Below are positions 23,232 through 43,259 of a stretch of DNA of 64,000 nt, in pieces. Position 1 is the first letter of the stretch. Every line of letters starts with the position of its first letter. Below the pieces are notes generated by a model. It was given only the letters and a program-made list of their open reading frames with translations. It was not told where the DNA came from and made no database searches. Origin of the DNA: an uncultured Clostridia bacterium (lineage in GTDB: Bacteria; Bacillota; Clostridia; Christensenellales; CAG-917); contig CALVKR010000007.1 of assembly GCA_944332995.1 (NCBI GenBank), forward strand, positions 9,859 to 73,858, given 5' to 3'. A program made the translations under genes and the position numbers.

Positions 23232-24989
23232 TTATTTTGAGTCCTGCAAGGCGTCATAGCCTTCTTCGCCTGTCCTCACTTTTACTACGTTTTCCACGTC
23301 GTAAACGAATATCTTTCCGTCGCCTATCTCGCCTGTATACAGTGCGGATTTTGCCGCCTCGATAACGTCCTTTACCGGCACCTTGGATACGACGATATCC
23401 ACCTGCACTTTAGGCAACAGATTTACGGTAACGGGAACGCCTCTGTAAAATTCCTTTTTGCCCTTCTGCTGTCCGTAACCCATGACGTGGGATACCGTCA
23501 TACCGGTTATGCCTATCTCCGTCAGAGCCGCATTGAGCTTTTGCAATCTTTCCTCTTTGCAAATTATCTGCACCTTTGTAAACTTTTTGGGAGCTAAGCC
23601 TCTCTCGGTTGCCGTCTTTAAAGGCTCGTAAGTGGACGCTGTTGCCGATGCATCCTCGCTTATCACTCTGCCACTTACGTCAAACTCGCCCTTTAAGCCT
23701 TCCGCTCCTTCGTAAGCCAAAGCATAGCTTGCAACGTTGGGAGCAAAATCGGCGTATGCGTTGATGAGTCCGTGTTCGGAAACGTCAAGTCCTTTGAGTT
23801 CTTCTTCCGGCTTGACTCTCAGTCCTATCGTCTTTTTTATGATAAAGAAGAACAAAGTCATAAGCGCCGCAGTATAAAGGCATACGGTTACCACACCCAA
23901 AACCTGAACGCCGAGCTGATACCAATCGCCGGTGTAGAAAAGTCCTTTAACTCCGGCAGGTGCGTTGGGGTTTGCCAAAAGACCTACCGCAATCGTTCCC
24001 CATATTCCGTTTGCGAGGTGCACTCCGACTGCACCGACAGGGTCGTCAACGTGAAGTTTTAAATCTATAAATTCTATCACGAGCACGATGAGGAATCCGG
24101 AAACGAGTCCCACCACGATAGAGCCTATCGCATCGAACGCCGCACAGCCCGCCGTCACGCCTACGAGTCCTGCCAGACAGGCGTTGATACACATCGACAC
24201 GTCAGGCTTTTTGTTTTTTACCCATGTGAATATGAGCGTCGTGCACGTCGCCACCGCAGGAGCAATCGTCGTGTTTAAAAAGATTGTCGCAAGTTCGGAT
24301 ACGCTTGTCGCCGCCGCACCGTTGAAGCCGTACCAGCCAAACCAGAGTATGAATGCTCCGAGTGCGCCGAGCGGTATGGAATGTCCCATGATTGCATTTA
24401 CTTTGATGACCTTTCCGTTTTCGTCACGTTCGTATTTACCGATTCTCGGACCTACCATTATTGCGCCTATCAAAGCGGTTATACCGCCCACCATATGTAT
24501 CGCCGTCGAGCCTGCATAATCGTGGAATCCCATCTGTGCAAGCCAGCCGCCTCCCCATATCCAGTGCGCCTCGATAGGATATACGACAAGCGAGATTATA
24601 GCCGAGTAAATGCAATATGCCGAAAACTTCGTTCTTTCCGCCATAGAGCCGGAAACGATTGTCGCCGCAGTCGCACAGAACACAAGGTTGAACACAAACT
24701 TGGACGCCTCCGTCAAGCCTTCCTCGGGTGAGGCGATAAACTCCGTAAACTTACCGAACAAATCCAGGTTCGGTATGCCCACAAGTCCTGCCAAGGCGTC
24801 CTCGCCCATCATAAGTCCGTAACCTAAAAGCATAAAGACGACGGTGCCTATACAAAAGTCCATAAGGTTTTTCATTATAATGTTGCCTGCGTTTTTTGCT
24901 CGGGCAAAGCCTGTTTCCACCATGGCAAATCCCGCCTGCATAAAAAATACCAACGCCGCTCCGATTAAATACCAATATTCCGTAGTCAT
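23232..24989 (-). CDS. amt: ammonium transporter fused to a C-terminal PII (GlnK-like) domain
   Basis: Amt motifs FMQAGF, DYAGSTAIH, WFGWYGFN, DDPVGA..VH, followed in frame by PII motifs G.G.QKG..E.YRG and TGEIGDGKIF. Confidence 0.95.
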   Translation of the reverse strand: MTTEYWYLIGAALVFFMQAGFAMVETGFARAKNAGNIIMKNLMDFCIGTVVFMLLGYGLMMGEDALAGLVGIPNLDLFGKFTEFIASPEEGLTEASKFVFNLVFCATAATIVSGSMAERTKFSAYCIYSAIISLVVYPIEAHWIWGGGWLAQMGFHDYAGSTAIHMVGGITALIGAIMVGPRIGKYERDENGKVIKVNAIMGHSIPLGALGAFILWFGWYGFNGAAATSVSELATIFLNTTIAPAVATCTTLIFTWVKNKKPDVSMCINACLAGLVGVTAGCAAFDAIGSIVVGLVSGFLIVLVIEFIDLKLHVDDPVGAVGVHLANGIWGTIAVGLLANPNAPAGVKGLFYTGDWYQLGVQVLGVVTVCLYTAALMTLFFFIIKKTIGLRVKPEEELKGLDVSEHGLINAYADFAPNVASYALAYEGAEGLKGEFDVSGRVISEDASATASTYEPLKTATERGLAPKKFTKVQIICKEERLQKLNAALTEIGITGMTVSHVMGYGQQKGKKEFYRGVPVTVNLLPKVQVDIVVSKVPVKDVIEAAKSALYTGEIGDGKIFVYDVENVVKVRTGEEGYDALQDSK

Positions 24990-25007: not shown

Positions 25008-27098
25008 TTATACTCCGAAAAGCAGCTCACCGTACGTCGGGAACGGCCAACATTCTTTTGAACATACCGTTTCCGCTTCGTCCGCCAAAAGACGCAGACG
25101 AGTCATTAAGGGAAGCACGCTGTCGCGTATCTTTGCCGATTCTGCAATGACGTCGCTTCCGTCCTTTGTCTTGATGACCTCGCCTTCGAGCTCGCCCGTC
25201 ATATCGAACATGGCGTCCGACAGAGTCGAGAGCTTGGATACCGTTTTTGTTTCAAACATACATTCCGCATTTTGAGATACTGATTTCTTTTTGATAACCG
25301 TATCGCAAAGTTTGTCAACGTATTTGGATATTGCCGGCAATATTTGTTTTTTCACCATATCCGTCATCGTGTTAGCTTCGATAATGACCGTCTTGCAATA
25401 GTTTTCAAGCATTATCTCGCATCTCGACTCAAGCTCTTCCTTTGTGAAGATTCCGTGGGATATGAGCATATCCGCATTCTTTTTATCGAGAAGATGCGGC
25501 ATACAGTCCGCCGTCGTCTTATAGTTTGAAAGTCCTCGTCTTTCGGCTTCGGCTATCCATTCGTCGTCATAGCCGTTGCCGTTGAATATGATTCTCTTGT
25601 GGTCCTTTATCGTCTTTTTGATGACTTCTTGCAATTTCGTTTTGAAGTCTGCCGCACCCTCAAGCTTGTCGGCGTATTGCTTTAAAGATTCCGCAACGGC
25701 GGCGTTAAGCATCATGTTGGCGCAGGCTATACTGTTTGACGAGCCGAGCATTCTGAACTCAAATTTGTTTCCGGTAAAGGCAAACGGCGACGTCCTGTTG
25801 CGGTCGGTCGTGTCTTTGACGAATTTAGGCAATACGTCGACGCCGAGCTTCATTTGCTTTTTCTCTTTTGCGCTGTATGGCTTATCCGTTTCGATAGCCT
25901 CGAGTACGGCGCTGAGTTCCTCGCCCAAAAACATCGATATGACCGCAGGCGGAGCTTCGTTTGCTCCGAGACGGTGGTCGTTGCCCGCCGTAGCAACGGA
26001 CAGTCTCAGCAAATCCTGATAGTCGTCAACCGCTTTTATCACGGCGCAAAGGAATATCAAAAACTGAGCGTTTTCATAAGGCGTTTCGCCGGGGGTGAGC
26101 AGGTTTACGCCTGTATCCGTCGTCATTGACCAGTTGTTGTGCTTACCGCTGCCGTTTACGCCTGCAAACGGTTTTTCGTGCAACAGACAGACGAGGTCGT
26201 GGCGTTTTGCAACCTTTTGCATGATTTCCATCGTAAGTTGGTTTTGGTCGGTTGCAATGTTCGTGGTCGAATATATCGGCGCAAGCTCGTGCTGTGCGGG
26301 AGCAACCTCGTTGTGCTGAGTTTTGGCAAGAATGCCGAGTTTCCAAAGCTCGTCGTTGAGGTCGTGCATAAAGTCAAGCACTCTCGGTTTAATGACTCCG
26401 AAATAGTGGTCGTCCATCTCCTGACCCTTGGGAGGTTTTGCTCCGAACAGCGTTCTGCCCGTGTAAATCAAATCCGGTCTTTGGTCATACAGTTTTTTGT
26501 CTACCAAAAAATATTCTTGCTCAGGTCCGACGCTCGTTTTAACGCATTTTGCCGTATCGTTTCCGAACAGCTTTAAAATCCTGAGCGCTTGTTTGTTTAA
26601 CGCTTCCATCGAACGCAGAAGCGGAGTTTTTTTGTCGAGCGCCTCGCCGCCGTAAGAGCAGAAGGCTGTGGGTATGCAAAGAGTTTTATCCTTGATAAAC
26701 GCATAACTTGTAGGGTCCCACGCCGTATATCCTCTTGCTTCAAACGTTGCCCTGAGTCCGCCCGACGGGAAACTCGAGGCGTCGGGCTCGCCCTTGATAA
26801 GTTCTTTTCCCGAAAACTCCATTATCACTCTGCCGTCGGGAGCGGGACTGATAAATCCGTCGTGTTTTTCCGCCGTGATACCCGTCAAAGGTTGAAACCA
26901 GTGCGTGTAGTGCGTCGCACCCTTTTGAACCGCCCAATCTTTCATTGCCGTTGCAACGGCGTTAGCGACCGATAGGTCGAGGGTTGCGCCCTCGTCGATA
27001 GTTTTTCTCAGCGAATTGTATACGTCCGCAGAGAGCATAGAGCGCATAACTCTGTCGTCAAAAACCATACTTGAAAAATAATCCGATACCGTTTGCAT
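25008..27098 (-). CDS. glnA: glutamine synthetase type III
   Basis: 696 aa, [58 protein letters not shown]. Confidence 0.96.
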
Positions 27099-27146
27099 AA
27101 ATTTTTCTCCTTTTAAATTTTTTCGGCAATGCCTGTATCACGGCAT

Positions 27147-27193
27147 AAAAAAAAGCGTCTTCGAGACTAAGTCTCAAAGACGCCTTTGCCTTT
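27147..27193 (-). promoter_or_regulatory. attenuator: ANTAR-type hairpin overlapping an intrinsic terminator (GS III leader)
   Basis: Minus strand AAAGGC-AAAGGC-GTCTTT (6-nt loop, A1/G4) overlaps the 5' arm of GCGTCTTTGAGAC-tta-GTCTCGAAGACGC-T8. Confidence 0.8.
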
Positions 27194-27202
27194 TTCGCTT
27201 GC

Positions 27203-27231
27203 ATTATACAAAAGGTTTTTTTTGTTGTCAA
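27203..27231 (-). promoter_or_regulatory. consensus sigma-A promoter of the GS III operon
   Basis: TTGACA-17 bp-TATAAT on the minus strand. Confidence 0.85.
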
Positions 27232-27504
27232 CGATTTTTTTTAATTTTTTTTCTCTTTTTTTTAGTTTGTACCTTTCTCTTTTCTCTTTTTTCGGCGCAT
27301 ATAAATATATATATAAAAGAGAGTATCATACCCTATCCTATTATTTTTTTTTCGCTGAATTGTACTCATTTTATTCTGCCGCCAAAGATTGCCTTCCGCT
27401 GTTAAATCAAATGCGACTATCCTTTTAAAATTCATACGGTTAAAAGGCAAAATCTTTGCCTTTTTTTACCGCAATTTTAAGACAAATTTTTTTTTGCTCG
27501 GTTG

Positions 27505-27533
27505 TTGACAACCTTAAAATACTGTGCTATAAT
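27505..27533 (+). promoter_or_regulatory. consensus sigma-A promoter of the glutamate synthase operon
   Basis: TTGACA-17 bp-(TGc)TATAAT. Confidence 0.85.
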
Positions 27534-27544
27534 CTCGCTGAAAG

Positions 27545-27600
27545 TGAGCAAAGACGTTCATTTCAGAGTTTTGACGACTCTGAAACGGGCGTCTTTTTTT
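27545..27600 (+). promoter_or_regulatory. attenuator: ANTAR-type hairpin overlapping an intrinsic terminator (glutamate synthase leader)
   Basis: TGAGC-AAAGAC-GTTCA (loop A1/G4) overlaps the 5' arm of a long stem AAAGACGTTCATTTCAGAGT...ACTCTGAAACGGGCGTCTTT ending in a T-run. Confidence 0.8.
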
Positions 27601-27630: not shown

Positions 27631-28728
27631 ATGGATTTGAAAGAAGGGCAAATAAGAATTCCGTCGGGCTGCGCCGTGAGCGCCGTTATTTCACGGCAAG
27701 GCAACGCCGTAAACGGAGAAAAGATTGTCAAAAGCATGATACCCATGCACGAGAGATCCAACGGACTCGGAGGCGGTTTTGCCGCATACGGAATATATCC
27801 CGAATACGCCGAGTTTTACGCATTTCATATGTTTTTCGACTCGAGGCAGGCGAAAATCGATTTTGAAACGTATATCAAAGAATTTTTTGAAATCGTCAAA
27901 TCGGAAATCATTCCGACGAAAAAGATAAGGGCGATAGTAAACGAGCCTTTGATAATGCGCTACTTTCTTGCCCCTATGAAATCCCGTCTTGCCGACGCTC
28001 AGCTTGACGAACGTGAATTCGTGGCGAGAACGGTCATGCGTATAAACTGCAAAATAGAGGGCGCTTGCGTCGTTTCGAGCGGTAAGAATATGGGCGTATT
28101 CAAGGCAGTCGGATACCCCGAGGACGTCGGCGAATTTTACAGTCTGAGCGAATACGACGCATATCTTTGGACGGCGCACGGCAGATATCCTACAAACACT
28201 CCCGGCTGGTGGGGAGGCGCTCATCCTTTCGGGCTTTTGGATTATACGGTGGTGCACAACGGCGAAATATCGTCATACGACGCAAACAGACGTTTTATAG
28301 AAATGTTCGGTTATAAATGCACTCTGCAAACGGATACCGAGGTCATAACCTACATAGCGGATTTTCTTTTGCGCAGACAAAAGCTGACGCTTGAAGAAAC
28401 GGCGTTAGTTATCGCCGCCCCGTTTTGGAGCACGATTGCAAAGTGCGATAAAGAAAAAAAGGACAAGCTGACCTATCTGAGATACGTATTTTCTTCCCTG
28501 CTCATCACCGGTCCGTTTTCGATAATACTCGGCTTTGACGGCGGCGTTATGGCGCTCAACGACAGATTGAAACTTCGTTCAATGGTGACGGGAGAAAAAA
28601 AAGATTTGTTTTTTATAGCGAGCGAGGAAGCCGCTATAAGAGCTATGGAGCCGGAAGCGGAAAACATATATTCGCCCGACGGTGGCGAGCCGATTATCGT
28701 AAAGGTTGAAAAGGAGGCGCAAAAGTGA
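27631..28728 (+). CDS. glutamate synthase amidotransferase subunit (class II GATase, split GltB part 1)
   Basis: SGCAV, AHGRYPTNT..WW.GAHPF, VHNGEI, TDTE. SD GAGAGG before ATG 27631. Confidence 0.9.
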   Translation: MDLKEGQIRIPSGCAVSAVISRQGNAVNGEKIVKSMIPMHERSNGLGGGFAAYGIYPEYAEFYAFHMFFDSRQAKIDFETYIKEFFEIVKSEIIPTKKIRAIVNEPLIMRYFLAPMKSRLADAQLDEREFVARTVMRINCKIEGACVVSSGKNMGVFKAVGYPEDVGEFYSLSEYDAYLWTAHGRYPTNTPGWWGGAHPFGLLDYTVVHNGEISSYDANRRFIEMFGYKCTLQTDTEVITYIADFLLRRQKLTLEETALVIAAPFWSTIAKCDKEKKDKLTYLRYVFSSLLITGPFSIILGFDGGVMALNDRLKLRSMVTGEKKDLFFIASEEAAIRAMEPEAENIYSPDGGEPIIVKVEKEAQK

Positions 28729-30230
28729 AAGCAGATTATCTTTATCCTGAATTTGAAATAATACGAAACGAGGCGCTTTGCACAAAATGCCGCCTTTGCG
28801 AAAAGGAATGTTCAAACGGCGTGCATGCGTTTCTTCCCGAAAAAGGTATCCTAATTGCGGATTCGGCAAAATGCGTAAACTGTATGCGTTGCGTTGCAAC
28901 CTGCCCCGTGCACGCCATTAAAATCGTAAAGAGCGGAGCGGATTTTACCTACAACGCCAACTGGACTTCGGACGTGATAAGAGAGATTTTCAAGCAATCG
29001 GCAACGGGCGGAGTTTTGCTTTCGTCTATGGGCAATCCCAAACCCCTGCCCGTCTATTGGGACAAGATACTCATCAACGCCTCTCAAGTGACTAACCCGT
29101 CCATCGATCCGCTCAGAGAGCCGATGGAAACAAAAGTTTTTTTAGGCAAAAAGCCGTCGACCGTCATGCGCGACGAAAAGGGCAAAATGATTTTAAACAC
29201 ACCCCCGTCGCTTGAGCTTTCCCTGCCCGTTATGTTTGCCGCAATGAGCTACGGCTCTATAAGCTACAACGCTCACGAGTGTCTTGCAAGAGCGGCAACG
29301 GAGCTCGGCACTTTTTACAATACCGGCGAGGGCGGTTTGCATCAAAACTTTTATAAATACGGTTCAAGCACGATTGTGCAGGTAGCGTCGGGAAGATTTG
29401 GAGTGCACAAAGATTATCTCGAAGCGGGAGCGGCAGTCGAAATTAAGATGGGGCAAGGCGCAAAGCCCGGTATAGGAGGTCACCTGCCCGGCTCGAAAAT
29501 CGTTGACGACGTTTCAAAAACGAGAATGATTCCGATTGGCTCGGACGCCATATCCCCCGCCCCTCATCACGATATCTATTCGATAGAAGATTTAAGACAG
29601 CTCGTCTTTTCCCTTAAAGAGGCGACGGATTATAAAAAACCTGTCTTTGTCAAAGTGGCGGCTGTTCACAATATAGCGGCAATAGCAAGCGGTATTGCCC
29701 GAAGCGGCGCAGACGCAATCGTCATAGACGGATTCAGAGGCGGCACGGGCGCAGCCCCGACGAGAATAAGGGATAACGTGGGTATCCCCGTGGAGCTCGC
29801 CCTTGCGGCTGTGGACGAAAGGCTAAGACAAGAAGGAATACGAAACGACGTTTCGCTCATAGTGAGCGGAAGCATAAGAAGCTCCGCCGACGTTATCAAG
29901 GCAATCGCTTTAGGCGCAGACGCTTGCTATATCGCCACCGCCGCTCTCGTTTCTCTCGGCTGTCACCTTTGCAGAAACTGCCAAAGCGGAAAATGCAATT
30001 GGGGTATCGCCACTCAACGTCCCGAACTTGTCGCAAGGCTCGACCCCGACGAAGGCAGCGAAAGACTTGTCAAATTGCTCACCGCTTGGAAAAGGGAAAT
30101 CAAAGAGTTTATGGGAGCCATGGGCATCAACTCTATCGAAGCTCTTAAAGGCAACCGTCTTATGCTCAGAGGTATAGGCCTTAGCGAAACGGAACTCAAA
30201 GTGCTCGGCATCAAGCACGCAGGCGAATAA
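28725..30230 (+). CDS. glutamate synthase FMN-binding subunit with N-terminal 2x[4Fe-4S] domain (split GltB part 2)
   Basis: Two CxxCxxCxxxC motifs, MSYGSIS, NTGEGG, QVASGRFG, EIKMGQGAKPG.GGHLPG.K. Confidence 0.93.
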   Translation: MKADYLYPEFEIIRNEALCTKCRLCEKECSNGVHAFLPEKGILIADSAKCVNCMRCVATCPVHAIKIVKSGADFTYNANWTSDVIREIFKQSATGGVLLSSMGNPKPLPVYWDKILINASQVTNPSIDPLREPMETKVFLGKKPSTVMRDEKGKMILNTPPSLELSLPVMFAAMSYGSISYNAHECLARAATELGTFYNTGEGGLHQNFYKYGSSTIVQVASGRFGVHKDYLEAGAAVEIKMGQGAKPGIGGHLPGSKIVDDVSKTRMIPIGSDAISPAPHHDIYSIEDLRQLVFSLKEATDYKKPVFVKVAAVHNIAAIASGIARSGADAIVIDGFRGGTGAAPTRIRDNVGIPVELALAAVDERLRQEGIRNDVSLIVSGSIRSSADVIKAIALGADACYIATAALVSLGCHLCRNCQSGKCNWGIATQRPELVARLDPDEGSERLVKLLTAWKREIKEFMGAMGINSIEALKGNRLMLRGIGLSETELKVLGIKHAGE

Positions 30231-30250: not shown

Positions 30251-30973
30251 ATGATAACCATAAATGCTTCTACACACGACAACGCATCTTTATGCGAAAT
30301 GATAAAACAGGCAAAAGATGACGTGAAAATATCTCACTGCCTCGGCGAAAGATTTTTGGGCGTCGGACTTAAAGACAGATATATCGAAATCGACGGCACT
30401 CCGGGAAATGCGCTCGGCGCCTACCTCAACGGAGGAAGCGTAAAAGTAAACGGCAACGCTCAGGACGCCGTGGGCGACACTATGAATGCGGGAACGATAG
30501 TAATTTACGGCAATGCAGGCGACGCTGTAGGATACGCCATGCGAGGCGGAAAGATATACATTAAAGGCAACGCAGGCTACCGTGCGGGGATACACATAAA
30601 GGCATACAAGGAAAAATTCCCCGTCATCGTGATAGGTGGCCGCTGCGGAAGTTTTTTGGGCGAGTATCAGGCAGGCGGCTTGATTATCGTTTTGGGACTT
30701 TGTAAATCAGAAAAGAACGTGACCGGCAATTTCCCTTGCACGGGTATGCACGGAGGCAGAGTGCTCATAAGAGGCGACGTCAGCAAGATAACCTTTCCCG
30801 AGCAGGTCAGCGTTGGCGAGGCTACAGAAGAAGATATGAACACGGCCATGCCATATATAAAAGAATTTTGCTCGTTGTTCGGCTACGAGCTGTCCGAAGT
30901 GCTCGGCTCTGCCTTTACCGCCGTAAAACCGAACAGCGCCAATCCTTATAAACAAATGTACGTTGAAAACTGA
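30251..30973 (+). CDS. glutamate synthase GXGXG beta-helix subunit (split GltB part 3)
   Basis: Repeated G.AGD..G..M.GG.I.I.G motifs. Confidence 0.9.
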   Translation: MITINASTHDNASLCEMIKQAKDDVKISHCLGERFLGVGLKDRYIEIDGTPGNALGAYLNGGSVKVNGNAQDAVGDTMNAGTIVIYGNAGDAVGYAMRGGKIYIKGNAGYRAGIHIKAYKEKFPVIVIGGRCGSFLGEYQAGGLIIVLGLCKSEKNVTGNFPCTGMHGGRVLIRGDVSKITFPEQVSVGEATEEDMNTAMPYIKEFCSLFGYELSEVLGSAFTAVKPNSANPYKQMYVEN

Positions 30974-31066
30974 CCGACGCAAAATAACTGCCAAACTTAA
31001 AAATGCTCCGTCGACCGTTTTATACGATAAAACGCAAAGCTAATTCAGCTAAAATTTTATTTTGTA

Positions 31067-31095
31067 TTGACACGGCGACGGCGTTTATTTATTAT
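31067..31095 (+). promoter_or_regulatory. sigma-A promoter of the GS I-like/ANTAR gene pair
   Basis: TTGACA-17 bp-TATTAT. No ANTAR hairpin or terminator seen in the leader. Confidence 0.6.
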
Positions 31096-31265
31096 TATAT
31101 TGTTTATATCTATATAAGTATTTATATAATCTAATTATAAGACTGTAAAACCGTTTGTATATTTAAACAGTAAAACGTTGAAATTGCAAAATTTAAAATG
31201 CAAAATTTTAAAAGTTTATAAACCAAAACAAAACTTATAAGTCGATATTTTAAAAAGGTGAGAAA

Positions 31266-32477
31266 ATGAGTTATACACAAAAAGAAGTTATGCAATACTG
31301 CGCCGAGGAAGACGTAAAATTCATACGTCTTGCGTTTTGCGACGTTTTCGGAGTGCAAAAAAATATTTCCGTTATGCCGAGCCAGCTACCCAAGGTATTC
31401 AAGCACGGCATCGCCGTCGACGCTTCCGCTATCGACGGTTTCGGCAGGGAGGGACGCTCGGATTTGTTTTTATATCCCGACCCTTCCACCCTCACCGTCC
31501 TGCCCTGGCGACCGGAGCACGGCAGAGTCGTAAGAATGTTTTGTAAAATCTGCAATCCCGACGGAAGCGTTTTCATAAACGATACGAGAAGTATTTTGAT
31601 TAAGGCCGTTGCCGACGCAAAAGAAGCGGGATACACTTTCAATTTCGGCTCCGAGCTCGAATTTTATCTGTTCAAACTCGACGAAAAGGGAAACCGCACC
31701 TATATTCCGCACGACGAAGCGGGCTATATGGATATCGCCCCCGATGACAGAGGCGAAAACGTAAGGCGTGAAATTTGCCTGACGTTGGAACAAATGGAAA
31801 TAATCCCCGAGGGTTCGCACCACGAAGAAGGACCGGGACAAAACGAGATAGATTTTGAATATTCCGATCCACTGACTGCGGCGGACAGAGCTGTAACCTT
31901 TAAATCGGTGGTCAAAACGATTGCGGCAAGAAACGGGCTTTACGCCGATTTCTCGCCCAAGCCGCTTGCCGACCAGCCCGGCTCGGGATTTCACGTCAAT
32001 ATATCCGTCGGCGACGGAAAAAACGGCGAGCTTATGCCTTATCTGATTTCGGGCATTATGGATAAAATAAGAGATATCTCTCTGTTTTTAAATCCCGTTC
32101 AAAATTCATACGAGCGTCTCGGTTGCTTTAAAGCGCCCAAATACGTTTCGTGGTCAATCGAAAATCGCTCGCAGCTTATCAGAATACCTGCGGCTGTCGA
32201 AAACTTCAAACGTCTCGAGCTCCGCTCCCCCGACCCGGCTTGCAATCCTTATATAGGCTTTGCGTTGCTCATTTACGCCTGCATAGAGGGACTTGACGGA
32301 CACCTTCCGCTCCCCGAGCCTGCGGATATCAATTTCTATACCGCAAGTGAAGATATTCTGTGCCGTTTCAAAACTCTGCCTCTTAGCCTCGACGAGGCAA
32401 AAAAGACAACCTTGGCAAGCGACTTTGTAAATAAGCACTTGCCGTCATCTTTAATCGACGCCTACCTCAACAGATAA
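31266..32477 (+). CDS. glutamine synthetase type I-like protein (short, degenerate)
   Basis: ELEFY, HHEEGPGQNEI, GSGFH, NRSQLIRIP, ELRSPDP.CNPY. Only 403 aa, and the flap reads FKAP rather than YEAP. Confidence 0.88.
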   Translation: MSYTQKEVMQYCAEEDVKFIRLAFCDVFGVQKNISVMPSQLPKVFKHGIAVDASAIDGFGREGRSDLFLYPDPSTLTVLPWRPEHGRVVRMFCKICNPDGSVFINDTRSILIKAVADAKEAGYTFNFGSELEFYLFKLDEKGNRTYIPHDEAGYMDIAPDDRGENVRREICLTLEQMEIIPEGSHHEEGPGQNEIDFEYSDPLTAADRAVTFKSVVKTIAARNGLYADFSPKPLADQPGSGFHVNISVGDGKNGELMPYLISGIMDKIRDISLFLNPVQNSYERLGCFKAPKYVSWSIENRSQLIRIPAAVENFKRLELRSPDPACNPYIGFALLIYACIEGLDGHLPLPEPADINFYTASEDILCRFKTLPLSLDEAKKTTLASDFVNKHLPSSLIDAYLNR

Positions 32478-32489
32478 TCGGAGAAAGAT

Positions 32490-33074
32490 ATGTCGCTTCA
32501 GGAAAAGGTTTACAGCGTTTTAGTCGTTTCTTCATCGGACAAATTTTTAGCGTCCGTATCTCCCCTTTTGCCCGAAGCGTCCTTTTCTCCCGTGGACAAA
32601 GCCGACAGCGTATCTAAAGCCAAAAGACGGCTGGTTGACAAAAGCTACGATATCTTGCTCATCAATTCCCCTCTGCCCGACGAGGACGGTTGCAAGCTCG
32701 CAATAGATTTCTGTGGCGTGTCAAACGGAGTAGCGCTGTTGTTTGTATCAAGAGAACTCTATCACGATTTCTATGCCAAGACCGTCGACTTCGGCGTTAT
32801 GACCGTTCCCACGCCCACAAGCGTGCAAGTGGTGGCGCAATCGCTCGATTATCTGAGAGCGGTGATAGAACGTCTTAAGAAATTCAACCGCACCGTCAGC
32901 ACCGTTCAGGAAAAAATGAAGGAAATCAGGATAGTCAACCGTGCTAAATGGGTGCTTATCGAAGTTTTAAAAATGACCGAAGAAGACGCACACCGATATA
33001 TCGAAAAACAGGCAATGGACAGGTGCATTTCAAAAACGGCGGTAGCGGAAAATATAATAAACACTTATAAATAA
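32490..33074 (+). CDS. pseudo-receiver + ANTAR RNA-binding antiterminator (AmiR/NitR-like)
   Basis: C-terminal IVNRAKWVLI...MTEEDAHRYIEKQAMD....K..VAE.II. The receiver-like N-terminus has INSP in place of the phospho-Asp. Confidence 0.92.
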   Translation: MSLQEKVYSVLVVSSSDKFLASVSPLLPEASFSPVDKADSVSKAKRRLVDKSYDILLINSPLPDEDGCKLAIDFCGVSNGVALLFVSRELYHDFYAKTVDFGVMTVPTPTSVQVVAQSLDYLRAVIERLKKFNRTVSTVQEKMKEIRIVNRAKWVLIEVLKMTEEDAHRYIEKQAMDRCISKTAVAENIINTYK

Positions 33075-33103
33075 AAAGACGGAAAATTTTTCCGTCCTTT
33101 TTT
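33074..33103 (+). terminator. intrinsic terminator after the ANTAR gene
   Basis: GACGGAAA-att-TTTCCGTC followed by a T-run. Confidence 0.7.
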
Positions 33104-33186: not shown

Positions 33187-33219
33187 AATAAAAACGCCCG
33201 AAATTGTCGGGCGTTTATT
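33187..33219 (-). terminator. intrinsic terminator after the DtxR-family gene
   Basis: AAACGCCCGA-aattg-TCGGGCGTTT with a T-tract on the minus strand. Confidence 0.7.
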
Positions 33220-33584
33220 CAATCTTTAACGAATGCCTTGATAATTTCAAACAGTTCGTCGGAGACGACGTGCTCTATCCTGCACGCATTTTCTTCCGCC
33301 ATGGCGGAATTCGCGCCTATCTTTTCAAGCGCCCTTGTGAGTACCTCGTGTCTTTCGTAAATCTTTTCCGCCCTCTCCTTTCCCTCGGCGGTAAAATCGA
33401 TATCGCCGCTTACTCGGTCAAGCGTTATATATCCCTTTTTAACCAACAAGTTTACCGCTTTCGATACGCTCGACTTTGCGTAGTTTAACGTATCCACAAT
33501 ATCCACCGAACGCACGTTGGCCTTTTTCTTTTTCAAAAGGAAAATCGTTTCAAGATACATTTCCTCGGATTCTCTTGTCCGCAT
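33219..33584 (-). CDS. DtxR/MntR-family metal-dependent regulator
   Basis: S.EMYLETI, VRSVDI, SVSKAV..L, ERHEVL, ACRIEH. Confidence 0.9.
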   Translation of the reverse strand: MRTRESEEMYLETIFLLKKKKANVRSVDIVDTLNYAKSSVSKAVNLLVKKGYITLDRVSGDIDFTAEGKERAEKIYERHEVLTRALEKIGANSAMAEENACRIEHVVSDELFEIIKAFVKD

Positions 33585-38345: not shown

Positions 38346-38421
38346 GGTCGAGGTGACAAGATTTGAACTTGCGACCTTTCGGTCCCGAACCGAACGCACT
38401 ACCAAGCTGTGCCACACCTCG
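38345..38421 (-). tRNA. tRNA-Pro (anticodon CGG)
   Basis: 77-nt cloverleaf CGAGGTG...CACCTCG-ACCA, anticodon arm TTCGG-TTCGGGA-CCGAA, GTTCAAAT T-loop. Upstream TTGACA-17-TATTAT promoter. Confidence 0.97.
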
Positions 38422-43054: not shown

Positions 43055-43078
43055 CGCCCTCTTGTGCTAAAATTATAT

Positions 43079-43232
43079 CGCATAAGACGTCAGGGAAGTT
43101 GGTGAAAATCCGACACAGCCCCCGCTACTGTTATAAGCCAAGTTGCCATACGTCACCGAGAGGGAAGACGGCAAAGAATTTTTAGTTAAGATAAACTAAA
43201 ACTCTCTTAAAGTCAGGATACCGGTCTATGCG
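43079..43232 (+). ncRNA. cobalamin riboswitch
   Basis: AGGGAAgttGGTGAAAATCCgacACAGCCCCCGCTACTGT ... GGGAAG ... AAGTCAGGATACC (B12 box), closed by CGCATA(A)GAC/GTCTATGCG. Confidence 0.9.
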
Positions 43233-43259
43233 AAAATAATTTCTTTTACGGAGGGTAAA

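Follow-up and report, generated by a model that had tools for sequence, protein, structure and literature searches.

The nitrogen-assimilation genes carried on a 64,000-nucleotide (nt) stretch of the genome of an uncultured Clostridia bacterium (NCBI GenBank assembly GCA_944332995.1, contig CALVKR010000007.1, positions 9,859 to 73,858; hereafter the window, meaning the whole stretch analysed) may constitute a regulon under transcription attenuation, in which a trigger protein resembling glutamine synthetase (GS) gates an ANTAR antiterminator with a pseudo-receiver domain. I hold this reading tentatively, as falling just short of probable. The two genes concerned lie side by side on the plus strand. 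The one at 31266-32477 encodes a GS type I-alpha-like protein of 403 amino acids (aa) that belongs, by its domains, alignment, tree and model, to a short Lys-flap subfamily and is the candidate nitrogen sensor; the one at 32490-33074 encodes a pseudo-receiver ANTAR antiterminator of the NitR type (194 aa; ANTAR domain, alignment and model). Their open reading frames (ORFs) are separated by 12 nt, as had been stated in an original prediction made from the letters of the window.

Nitrogen sensing in most Clostridia is unsettled, and the proposal can be put more widely. A GS-derived trigger protein, with a Lys flap and no thong helix, would be the missing sensor that gates NitR-type ANTAR proteins by direct binding; together with a single-hexaloop hairpin it would form the main nitrogen circuit of Lachnospiraceae, Oscillospiraceae, Christensenellales and related gut Clostridia, and canonical GlnA of clostridia would fill this role too without giving up catalysis. 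In this broader form I regard the proposal as possible, leaning towards doubtful.

The GS-like protein and its ANTAR neighbour

Profile searches find the domains Gln-synt_N (E 3.7e-23) and Gln-synt_C (E 3.1e-82) in the GS-like protein, which scores 326.5 bits against the NCBIfam GlnA model TIGR00653, under the equivalog cut-off of 429.15. Among proteins of solved structure it comes closest to GS I-alpha enzymes, with M. mazei GS at E 1.2e-99, and its AlphaFold model, with a predicted local distance difference test (pLDDT) score of 90.9, superimposes on GS I-alpha structures with template-modelling (TM) scores of 0.95-0.96. In alignment with M. mazei GS the flap reads G-C-F-K-A-P against P-G-Y-E-A-P, that is, the Glu has become Lys289 and one residue is deleted, which bears out the predicted FKAP in the place of YEAP. 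A further 10-12 aa are deleted internally after the H-x-N-x-S strand, and the C-terminus comes 24-26 aa early, with 32 residues past position 372 versus 56-58 in canonical GS-I, the C-terminal thong helix being absent. The inter-ring helix is thus missing as predicted, and the total deficit is indeed about 40 aa; it had been placed wholly at the C-terminus and is in fact shared with the internal deletion and the single flap residue. In Travis et al. 2022, the flap Glu is given as the catalytic glutamate, glutamine feedback in Bacillus subtilis GS involves Glu304 braced by Arg62, and the C-terminal thong helices of that enzyme tie both rings and aid the binding of GlnR. An Arg does align with Arg62 in the window protein, as had been seen by eye, but in no other of the 68 aligned family members (R 1/68, D 55/68).

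The subfamily is large. A word-indexed search returned thousands of GS-like relatives, and the best 120, to which the figures on length and identity refer, are 65-100% identical and, but for one fragment, have 401-409 aa. The flap Lys is found in 68/68 aligned family members and in 119 of the 120 listed relatives, the exception being one miss of the regular expression. The ligands of metal, ATP and glutamate (E130, E132, Y154, E187, E194, H243, R301, R306, E318 and R320), as well as the Asp of the D50 loop (D52 in the GS-like protein), are kept in 67-68 of the 68; the metal and substrate motifs noted originally are a property of the family, and the protein is predicted to have retained its binding of metal and ATP as well as of glutamate or glutamine. 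The ammonium site is altered in part, with Lys for the flap Glu, and with Ala in 61/68 members at the position that aligns with the second Ser of the canonical D-G-S-S loop, versus Ser in 14/19 canonical sequences. Between the Lys-flap family and canonical GS-I the pattern of conservation differs at seven positions only, most sharply at position 289.

A maximum-likelihood tree of 40 GS-I sequences unites the short Lys-flap proteins in one clade (ultrafast bootstrap and Shimodaira-Hasegawa approximate likelihood ratio support 100/100), nested within a larger clade of proteins of about 439 aa that have the same one-residue-shorter flap, G-x-F-x-A-P. Among 120 of these intermediate proteins the flap residue is Glu in 109, Lys in 7 and Ala in 2, with 2 unmatched. 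The canonical GS I-alpha sequences, with V-P-G-Y-E-A-P, form the sister clade. Alignment and tree argue that the GS-like protein is a member of a conserved derived subfamily, not the product of a broken gene: the term 'degenerate', as originally used, does not fit in the sense of decay. A charge swap from Arg62/Glu304 to Asp61/Lys289 was considered as well, and dropped, for the intermediate clade has Asp or Asn at position 61 along with a Glu flap.

The ANTAR protein scores 58.5 bits against the ANTAR domain and 26.2 bits against Response_reg, below the threshold of 30.2. Its model (pLDDT 89.9) has a receiver (REC)-coiled coil-ANTAR fold, which Foldseek matches to Rv1626, to EutV in the RNA-bound form (TM 0.77) and to AmiR (TM 0.66); by sequence the match to AmiR is marginal (E 0.048). 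The acidic pocket reads VVSS (S14-S15), the phospho-Asp site is N59 and the Lys site is T108. All three departures had been pointed out in the original prediction, and the first two are characters of the family: of 76 orthologues, 74 have Asn as the acceptor residue, and S-[AS] stands in the place of the acidic pair. The third is peculiar to the window protein, because the receiver K-P is kept in 68/76. The pseudo-active-site face, formed by N59, P61, L62, D64 and G67, is nearly invariant in the family. HATPase_c finds no match on the whole contig of the window, in line with the kinase-less window described originally, and the genome has three canonical receivers, two of which adjoin kinase-like genes, both located off the contig of the window. 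From the missing acceptor Asp and acidic pocket, and from the lack of a spare kinase, it follows that the ANTAR protein is best described as a pseudo-receiver of the AmiR kind; it is predicted to be unable to accept a phosphoryl group and to act independently of a kinase, and on this point the original prediction holds. As the flap change in the GS-like protein and the acceptor loss in the ANTAR protein are both conserved across families of Clostridia, neither can be put down to chance or decay.

Linkage of the pair across Clostridia

In a linkage scan with one genome per species, at least 602 stretches matched and at least 575 encoded a relative, so that the GS-like/ANTAR pair is very widespread in gut Clostridia; among the hosts are Lachnospiraceae, Oscillospiraceae, Ruminococcus and Christensenellaceae from the guts of humans and animals. 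In the best 80 loci, which were kept for comparison, the ANTAR gene lies directly 3' of the GS-like gene in 78, with a gap of 22-106 nt in 74 loci and of 205-253 nt in four, and the two remaining loci end 49 and 86 nt past the GS-like gene. The other neighbours vary. A gene for the GXGXG subunit of glutamate synthase (GOGAT) lies upstream in 56/80 loci, mostly at a distance of about 20-40 nt, and is not found there in 24, four of which have less than 800 nt of upstream DNA; a gene for type III glutamine synthetase (GSIII) occurs within the fetched flanks in 21/80. Set against these varying neighbours (GXGXG, GSIII and amtB), the GS-like and ANTAR genes are therefore what stays constant. An even sampling of the phylum (401 genomes) contained ten with a GS-I at least 54% identical to the GS-like protein, and in every one of them a pseudo-receiver ANTAR gene adjoins it. 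The alignment and co-occurrence analysis that had been proposed as a check thus came out in favour of the pairing.

A wider view is given by the best 20 ANTAR matches outside the window's own genome, whose acceptor site is Asn in 14, Ser in five, Glu in one and Asp in none. Sixteen of them adjoin a GS-I gene, which encodes a short Lys-flap protein in three cases, a long Lys-flap protein in one, a Ser-flap protein in two and a Glu-flap protein in ten, and six of these ten are canonical GS-I enzymes of 442-449 aa. With canonical enzymes among the neighbours in these 16/20 cases, the pairing of pseudo-receiver and GS is therefore a general one. By the same token, the term 'candidate new system' was too strong, because the same pseudo-receiver ANTAR type adjoins canonical Glu-flap GS-I, which looks like the published glnA-nitR arrangement. 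GSIII is encoded in 18 of the 19 genomes with this ANTAR type, including all seven with an ANTAR-linked GS-I without a Glu flap, and the sole NitR-type genome lacking GSIII carries a canonical Glu-flap GS-I. One genome (G137) has two pairs of GS-I and pseudo-receiver ANTAR genes, one with an intermediate GS (439 aa, Glu flap; locus L089), the other with a canonical GS (449 aa; locus L100).

Leader RNAs and the input to the ANTAR protein

Two perfect sigma-70-type promoters, each TTGACA-17-TATAAT with 12/12 consensus positions, diverge from one another, that of the GSIII operon at 27203-27231 on the minus strand and that of the glutamate synthase (glt) operon, which also has a TG, at 27505-27533 on the plus strand. 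Each transcript opens with a hexaloop hairpin on a stem of 6-8 pairs: AAAAAGGC-AAAGGC-GUCUUUGA in the GSIII leader (27174-27195, minus strand) and AAGUGAGC-AAAGAC-GUUCAUUU in the glt leader (27542-27563, plus strand), both with A1 and G4 in the loop. A strong intrinsic terminator takes its 5' arm from the loop and 3' half of each hairpin. For the GSIII leader, this terminator (27143-27187, minus strand) consists of a 17-pair stem followed by a T run, the hairpin overlapping its 5' arm; in the glt leader (27550-27600, plus strand) the 5' arm is common to both structures, and fold energy and shuffles speak for it, the plus-strand leader folding at -37.9 kcal/mol (z -5.9 versus 200 shuffles). The apical loops of the terminators are variable and not of the A..G.. 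type. The two divergent attenuators of the original prediction are hence present, with a hairpin and a terminator in each leader. In Ramesh et al. 2012, the ANTAR target RNA is defined as two hairpins joined by a short linker, having hexaloops with A1 and G4, stems of at least 3 pairs, and competition with a terminator; the leader hexaloops AAAGAC and AAAGGC carry the A1/G4 signature, and the terminator-competing stem is present.

The same element recurs among relatives. In 83 related leaders, picked by their position 5' of amidotransferase (glt) and GSIII genes and not by pairing, the core motif GCAA-N-G-R-Y-GU occurs in 80 (41/42 amidotransferase and 39/41 GSIII leaders). Across 72 distinct instances of the motif, the five stem pairs lying outside it (pairs 3-7) are paired in 314/360 cells (87%), a share that drops to 50% and 45% on sliding the 3' partner by 1 or 2, and the leader classes differ by compensatory changes (AUGAGC/GUUCAU versus AAAGGC/GUCUUU). 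In eight loci where the GS-like/ANTAR pair lies apart from the GOGAT genes it has a leader motif of its own, and the regulator pair can therefore be taken to be autoregulated. Of the 47 loose matches to the core motif in the window's genome, only those in the two divergent leaders are, judging by eye, trailed by a complementary arm and then a T run; here the regulon seems to extend no further than the operons behind these leaders. No Rfam family reached its gathering threshold in the window leaders. A strict motif scan of 20 distant loci gave one site only; by reading their intergenic regions, hexaloop hairpins with A1 and G4 were recognised in six (L085, L089, L092, L094, L096 and L097), where they precede GS genes beside distant ANTAR homologues, in L096 a canonical GS-I gene, and the closing pairs differ from the core motif in several of them; L103 is a doubtful case. 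In the GSIII leaders of twelve relatives the hairpin-terminator unit is present twice in tandem, an arrangement that may supply a second hairpin for an ANTAR dimer.

Contigs from two metatranscriptome runs lie on the GS-like and ANTAR genes, one of them across the junction (32398-32644), contigs being mute as to transcription, transcript ends and levels. In one run, the bin covering the GSIII leader (27111-27321) has a contig word depth of 34.4, versus 3.5 or less elsewhere; this could reflect abundant terminated leader RNA, a matter on which contigs are not informative.

The hexaloop signature and the strict co-occurrence suggest that the ANTAR protein binds these hairpins. It would recognise the AAAGRC-type hexaloop hairpin at the 5' end of both divergent leaders, one ahead of GSIII and amtB-PII, the other ahead of the glutamate synthase, GS-like and ANTAR genes; by keeping the hairpin closed it would block the overlapping terminator, and read-through would ensue. 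Its input would come from the GS-like protein, acting chiefly as a trigger protein, with the bulk of catalysis left to GSIII. In the ligand state of nitrogen repletion the GS-like protein would bind the pseudo-receiver and hold the ANTAR protein off the RNA, and on nitrogen limitation it would let it go. I infer the binding of the two proteins, the ligand and the sign of control. That the GS-like protein inhibits ANTAR when nitrogen is plentiful is suggested by a single analogy, the Clostridium thermocellum phenotype described below. As to the ligand, glutamine is the obvious guess, yet the residues by which the B. subtilis enzyme senses it are gone; 2-oxoglutarate is a reasonable alternative, because a solved archaeal GS I-alpha structure has it bound, according to the title of the entry.

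The evidence counted in favour of this gating comprises the strict pairing, the lack of a spare kinase, the presence of GSIII in every sampled genome with a non-Glu-flap GS-I, and the derepression seen in C. thermocellum on deletion of its type I GS. A C. thermocellum strain with this deletion is said to show a transcription pattern like that of nitrogen starvation despite raised glutamine. Urease genes go up in the deletion strain, as cited by Whitham et al., and the title of Rydzak 2017 has it that the deletion 'deregulates nitrogen metabolism'. By published description, C. thermocellum has an ANTAR gene (Clo1313_2030), a type I-alpha glnA (2031) and GOGAT genes (2032-2036), besides three GSIII and an AmtB-PII fusion similar to that of the window. 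The order given there (glutamine amidotransferase, flavin mononucleotide (FMN) subunit, ferredoxin, oxidoreductase, GXGXG, type I-alpha GS and ANTAR) is common to most relatives of the window, whereas the window lacks the ferredoxin and oxidoreductase genes. The same descriptions propose no link between GS and ANTAR.

In addition, the structure of the complex was predicted from two GS-like chains and one ANTAR chain, with 68-row alignments drawn from the same loci. The score was 0.57 (runs 0.49, 0.57 and 0.57), against 0.00 for the best of three controls, which is weak support; the runs share at least 55% of contacts, with a partner pLDDT of at least 81. The mark applied is reached by 58/80 solved complexes and 2/110 mismatched pairs, and at scores up to 0.60 by seven of those 80 and by both of the passing mismatches, a calibration that is only rough for a three-chain prediction run on custom alignments. 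No solved complex of a GS with an ANTAR protein is known from which the result could have been memorised. The complex prediction proposed as a check thus separated the pair from its controls while staying in a weak band and returning no interface.

Several known systems resemble parts of this scheme. The closest is glnA-nitR of Clostridium saccharobutylicum, in which, according to a review, NitR antiterminates GS and GOGAT genes on nitrogen limitation by a mechanism called 'not fully understood', no sensor being named there. The likeness, drawn from descriptions, lies in a GS-I gene followed by an ANTAR gene, in terminator-bearing leaders before GS and GOGAT genes, and in the occurrence of the window's ANTAR type behind canonical Glu-flap GS-I genes (442-449 aa) as well; the difference is that the GS-I of the window comes from a separate clade, with 403 aa, a Lys flap, an internal deletion and no terminal thong helix. 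AmiR of Pseudomonas aeruginosa, described as a pseudo-receiver ANTAR protein with AmiC as its partner, and the partner-controlled regulator of the NasS-NasT system of Paracoccus denitrificans are controlled not by phosphorylation but by a separately encoded ligand-binding protein that sequesters the ANTAR protein and frees it on binding its ligand; the ANTAR protein of the window has a comparable non-phosphorylatable receiver-like domain. AmiC and NasS have a periplasmic-binding-protein fold, whereas the candidate partner here has that of GS.

The GS I-alpha of B. subtilis is described as reporting nitrogen status by binding regulators directly, and its gene shares an operon with a regulator gene. 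Its partners GlnR and TnrA, unlike ANTAR, are DNA-binding proteins of the MerR type whose C-terminal tail enters the active site; their binding needs glutamine on Glu304 and Arg62 as well as the thong helices, absent from the window protein, and the enzyme is also the working GS of the cell. Since the Lys-flap family has altered or lost each of these determinants (Glu304, Arg62 and the thong helices), the B. subtilis analogy on which the original prediction drew is not transferable as such. The EutV/EutW pair shares the REC-coil-ANTAR fold and the recognition of a hexaloop with A1 and G4 on a terminator-competing hairpin, but EutV is phosphorylated by EutW, whereas the ANTAR protein of the window has neither an acceptor Asp nor a kinase on its contig, and the known target has two hairpins where the window has one conserved hairpin per terminator.

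Several observations weigh against gating of the ANTAR protein by the GS-like protein. The determinants of glutamine sensing and GlnR/TnrA binding just mentioned are changed or missing; the complex score falls within a band described as 'more often wrong than right unless the guess was likely beforehand'; a single hairpin per terminator departs from the dual-hairpin definition of Ramesh et al.; and the C. thermocellum GS is likened to that of the window by gene order, no C. thermocellum entry being among the 120 matches listed for the intermediate-type GS of L089. Moreover, four of the best 20 ANTAR matches adjoin only GSIII, with no adjacent GS-I, and a search with the GS-like protein found no GS-I in one of these genomes, which is 100% complete, nor, at E <= 1e-105, in genome G356, the only sampled genome of the window's own family. 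Among weaker ANTAR matches, 17 were recovered from 20 fetched loci, and 15 of these adjoin GS-I while 13 keep the acceptor Asp; because Asp-bearing ANTAR proteins adjoin GS-I too, adjacency to GS is in itself no proof of a protein partnership, and it may reflect only a regulator lying beside its target. That last possibility is part of a different explanation, in which the GS-like protein is a plain enzyme of the operon, either a glutamine synthetase or a gamma-glutamyl ligase acting on another amine, co-expressed with glutamate synthase and making no contact with ANTAR. Its catalytic ligands are invariant or nearly so, as expected of an active ligase, so that the catalytic core is fully conserved; the fold is intact, as its TM scores to active enzymes indicate; its gene closes the GOGAT operon in 56/80 loci, which gives a GS-GOGAT unit; the distant, mostly Asp-bearing ANTAR proteins adjoin GS-I in much the same way; and an invariant Lys points to a new chemical role rather than to loss. 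I nevertheless consider the plain enzyme unlikely, though to be taken seriously, since the family has Lys in the place of what is described as the catalytic glutamate, lacks the helix that ties the rings, scores under the GlnA cut-off and coexists with GSIII in every sampled non-Glu-flap genome; besides, the pseudo-receiver would be left without an input, and the persistence of the pair when detached from the GOGAT genes would go unexplained.

The signal could also reach the ANTAR protein from elsewhere, be it from a metabolite bound to the pseudo-receiver, from the PII domain of AmtB-PII or from GSIII as a partner, the GS-like protein then being a regulated target. An AmtB-PII fusion is encoded in the regulon and is a possible alternative sensor; the GSIII-only neighbourhoods, including that of the genome in which the GS-like query found no GS-I, fit such a scheme; and the near-invariant pseudo-active-site face would suit a ligand pocket or another interface. 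The strict adjacency of the GS-like and ANTAR genes (78/80 loci, 10/10 genomes), while GSIII and amtB change position, makes this improbable, as do the weak pass of the complex prediction over zero-scoring controls and the tethering of the PII domain to a membrane transporter. More improbable still, and to my mind very unlikely, is that the split glutamate synthase, and not ANTAR, is what the GS-like protein controls or joins, as an enzyme complex or allosteric subunit: the GS-like gene does lie directly 3' of the GXGXG gene in 56/80 loci, usually at about 20-40 nt, but in 24/80 loci the GXGXG gene is not seen upstream of the pair, and the ANTAR gene is present wherever the DNA extends far enough.

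What is already known comprises the glnA-nitR linkage, ANTAR attenuation of nitrogen genes, partner-controlled pseudo-receiver ANTAR proteins and GS as a trigger enzyme. A full-text literature search, covering open papers without supplements such as the predicted-target tables of Ramesh et al. and without subscription papers, returned no paper that physically links a GS protein to an ANTAR regulator; within the same scope none dealt with a GS subfamily that has a Lys flap and no thong helix, the obligatory pairing of such a protein with a pseudo-receiver, the single-hexaloop leader element or a GS-derived ANTAR input. Should the GS-like protein be the sensor, it would be a third kind of partner for pseudo-receiver ANTAR proteins and a central enzyme turned into a dedicated signalling protein after GSIII took over catalysis. 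It would also form a compact protein-RNA switch, open to testing in C. thermocellum, a genetically tractable carrier of the same cluster, and might explain the deregulated nitrogen genes and the higher ethanol yield that follow from deleting the type I GS of this organism.

The remainder of the cluster and of the genome

The genome (1.54 Mb, 98.7% complete) has a single ANTAR gene and three GS-family genes, namely the GS-like gene and two for GSIII, one on the window and one on another contig (C4). The GSIII of the window (25008-27098, minus strand, 696 aa) has three GSIII domains (GSIII_N 7.5e-81, Gln-synt_C 9.7e-20 and Gln-synt_C-ter 5.6e-45), as expected from the intact GSIII originally predicted, and is the presumed catalytic GS. 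Downstream of it on the same strand, at 23232-24989, a single open frame of 585 aa combines an ammonium transporter (Ammonium_transp, E 5.6e-122) with a PII domain (P-II, E 4.1e-26); this AmtB-PII gene is probably a member of the attenuator-controlled operon. The second GSIII gene, at about 78.4-80.5 kb on the minus strand of C4, is preceded only by the terminator of the gene upstream and a short spacer; the hexaloop leader motif is absent from its upstream region, and because of this it may be expressed outside the ANTAR circuit.

On the plus strand, the glutamate synthase is of the split, archaeal type. Its class-II glutamine amidotransferase subunit is encoded at 27631-28728 (GATase_2, 4e-11), the ATG at 27631 agreeing with the N-termini of relatives, the FMN subunit with an N-terminal 4Fe-4S domain at 28725-30230 (Glu_synthase, 3.6e-137, and Fer4 families), and the GXGXG subunit at 30251-30973 (GXGXG, 7.2e-27). 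In three relatives the FMN and GXGXG genes are separated by a gene for a 142-aa 4Fe-4S ferredoxin and by an oxidoreductase-like gene (about 360-450 aa as called), whose name rests on gene order and on the annotation of C. thermocellum, and a gap of 1.7 kb at this place is common among the 80 loci; without them the window has a three-gene GOGAT cluster. An AT-rich spacer of 292 nt (30974-31265) separates the GXGXG and GS-like genes, at a place where relatives have about 20-40 nt. It contains a promoter-like site (31067-31095, plus strand, 11/12 consensus positions) that could provide basal expression of the GS-like/ANTAR pair. An operon-end terminator, with an 8-pair stem followed by a T run, lies at 33078-33096 on the plus strand.

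In genome G356, the member of the window's family mentioned above, the ANTAR protein is 193 aa long and has a divergent N-terminal half with no Pfam receiver match; its gene (locus L127, 6712-7293, plus strand) is flanked by purA and guaA, with a GSIII gene about 3.6 kb away. Back on the window, a gene for a DtxR-family metal-dependent repressor (33219-33584, minus strand) is convergent with the ANTAR gene, and past it follows a stretch of low GC content (37-41%, 32-38 kb). Further along, Rfam models identify a tRNA gene at 38348-38421 on the minus strand and a cobalamin riboswitch at 43068-43242 on the plus strand (59.2 bits).

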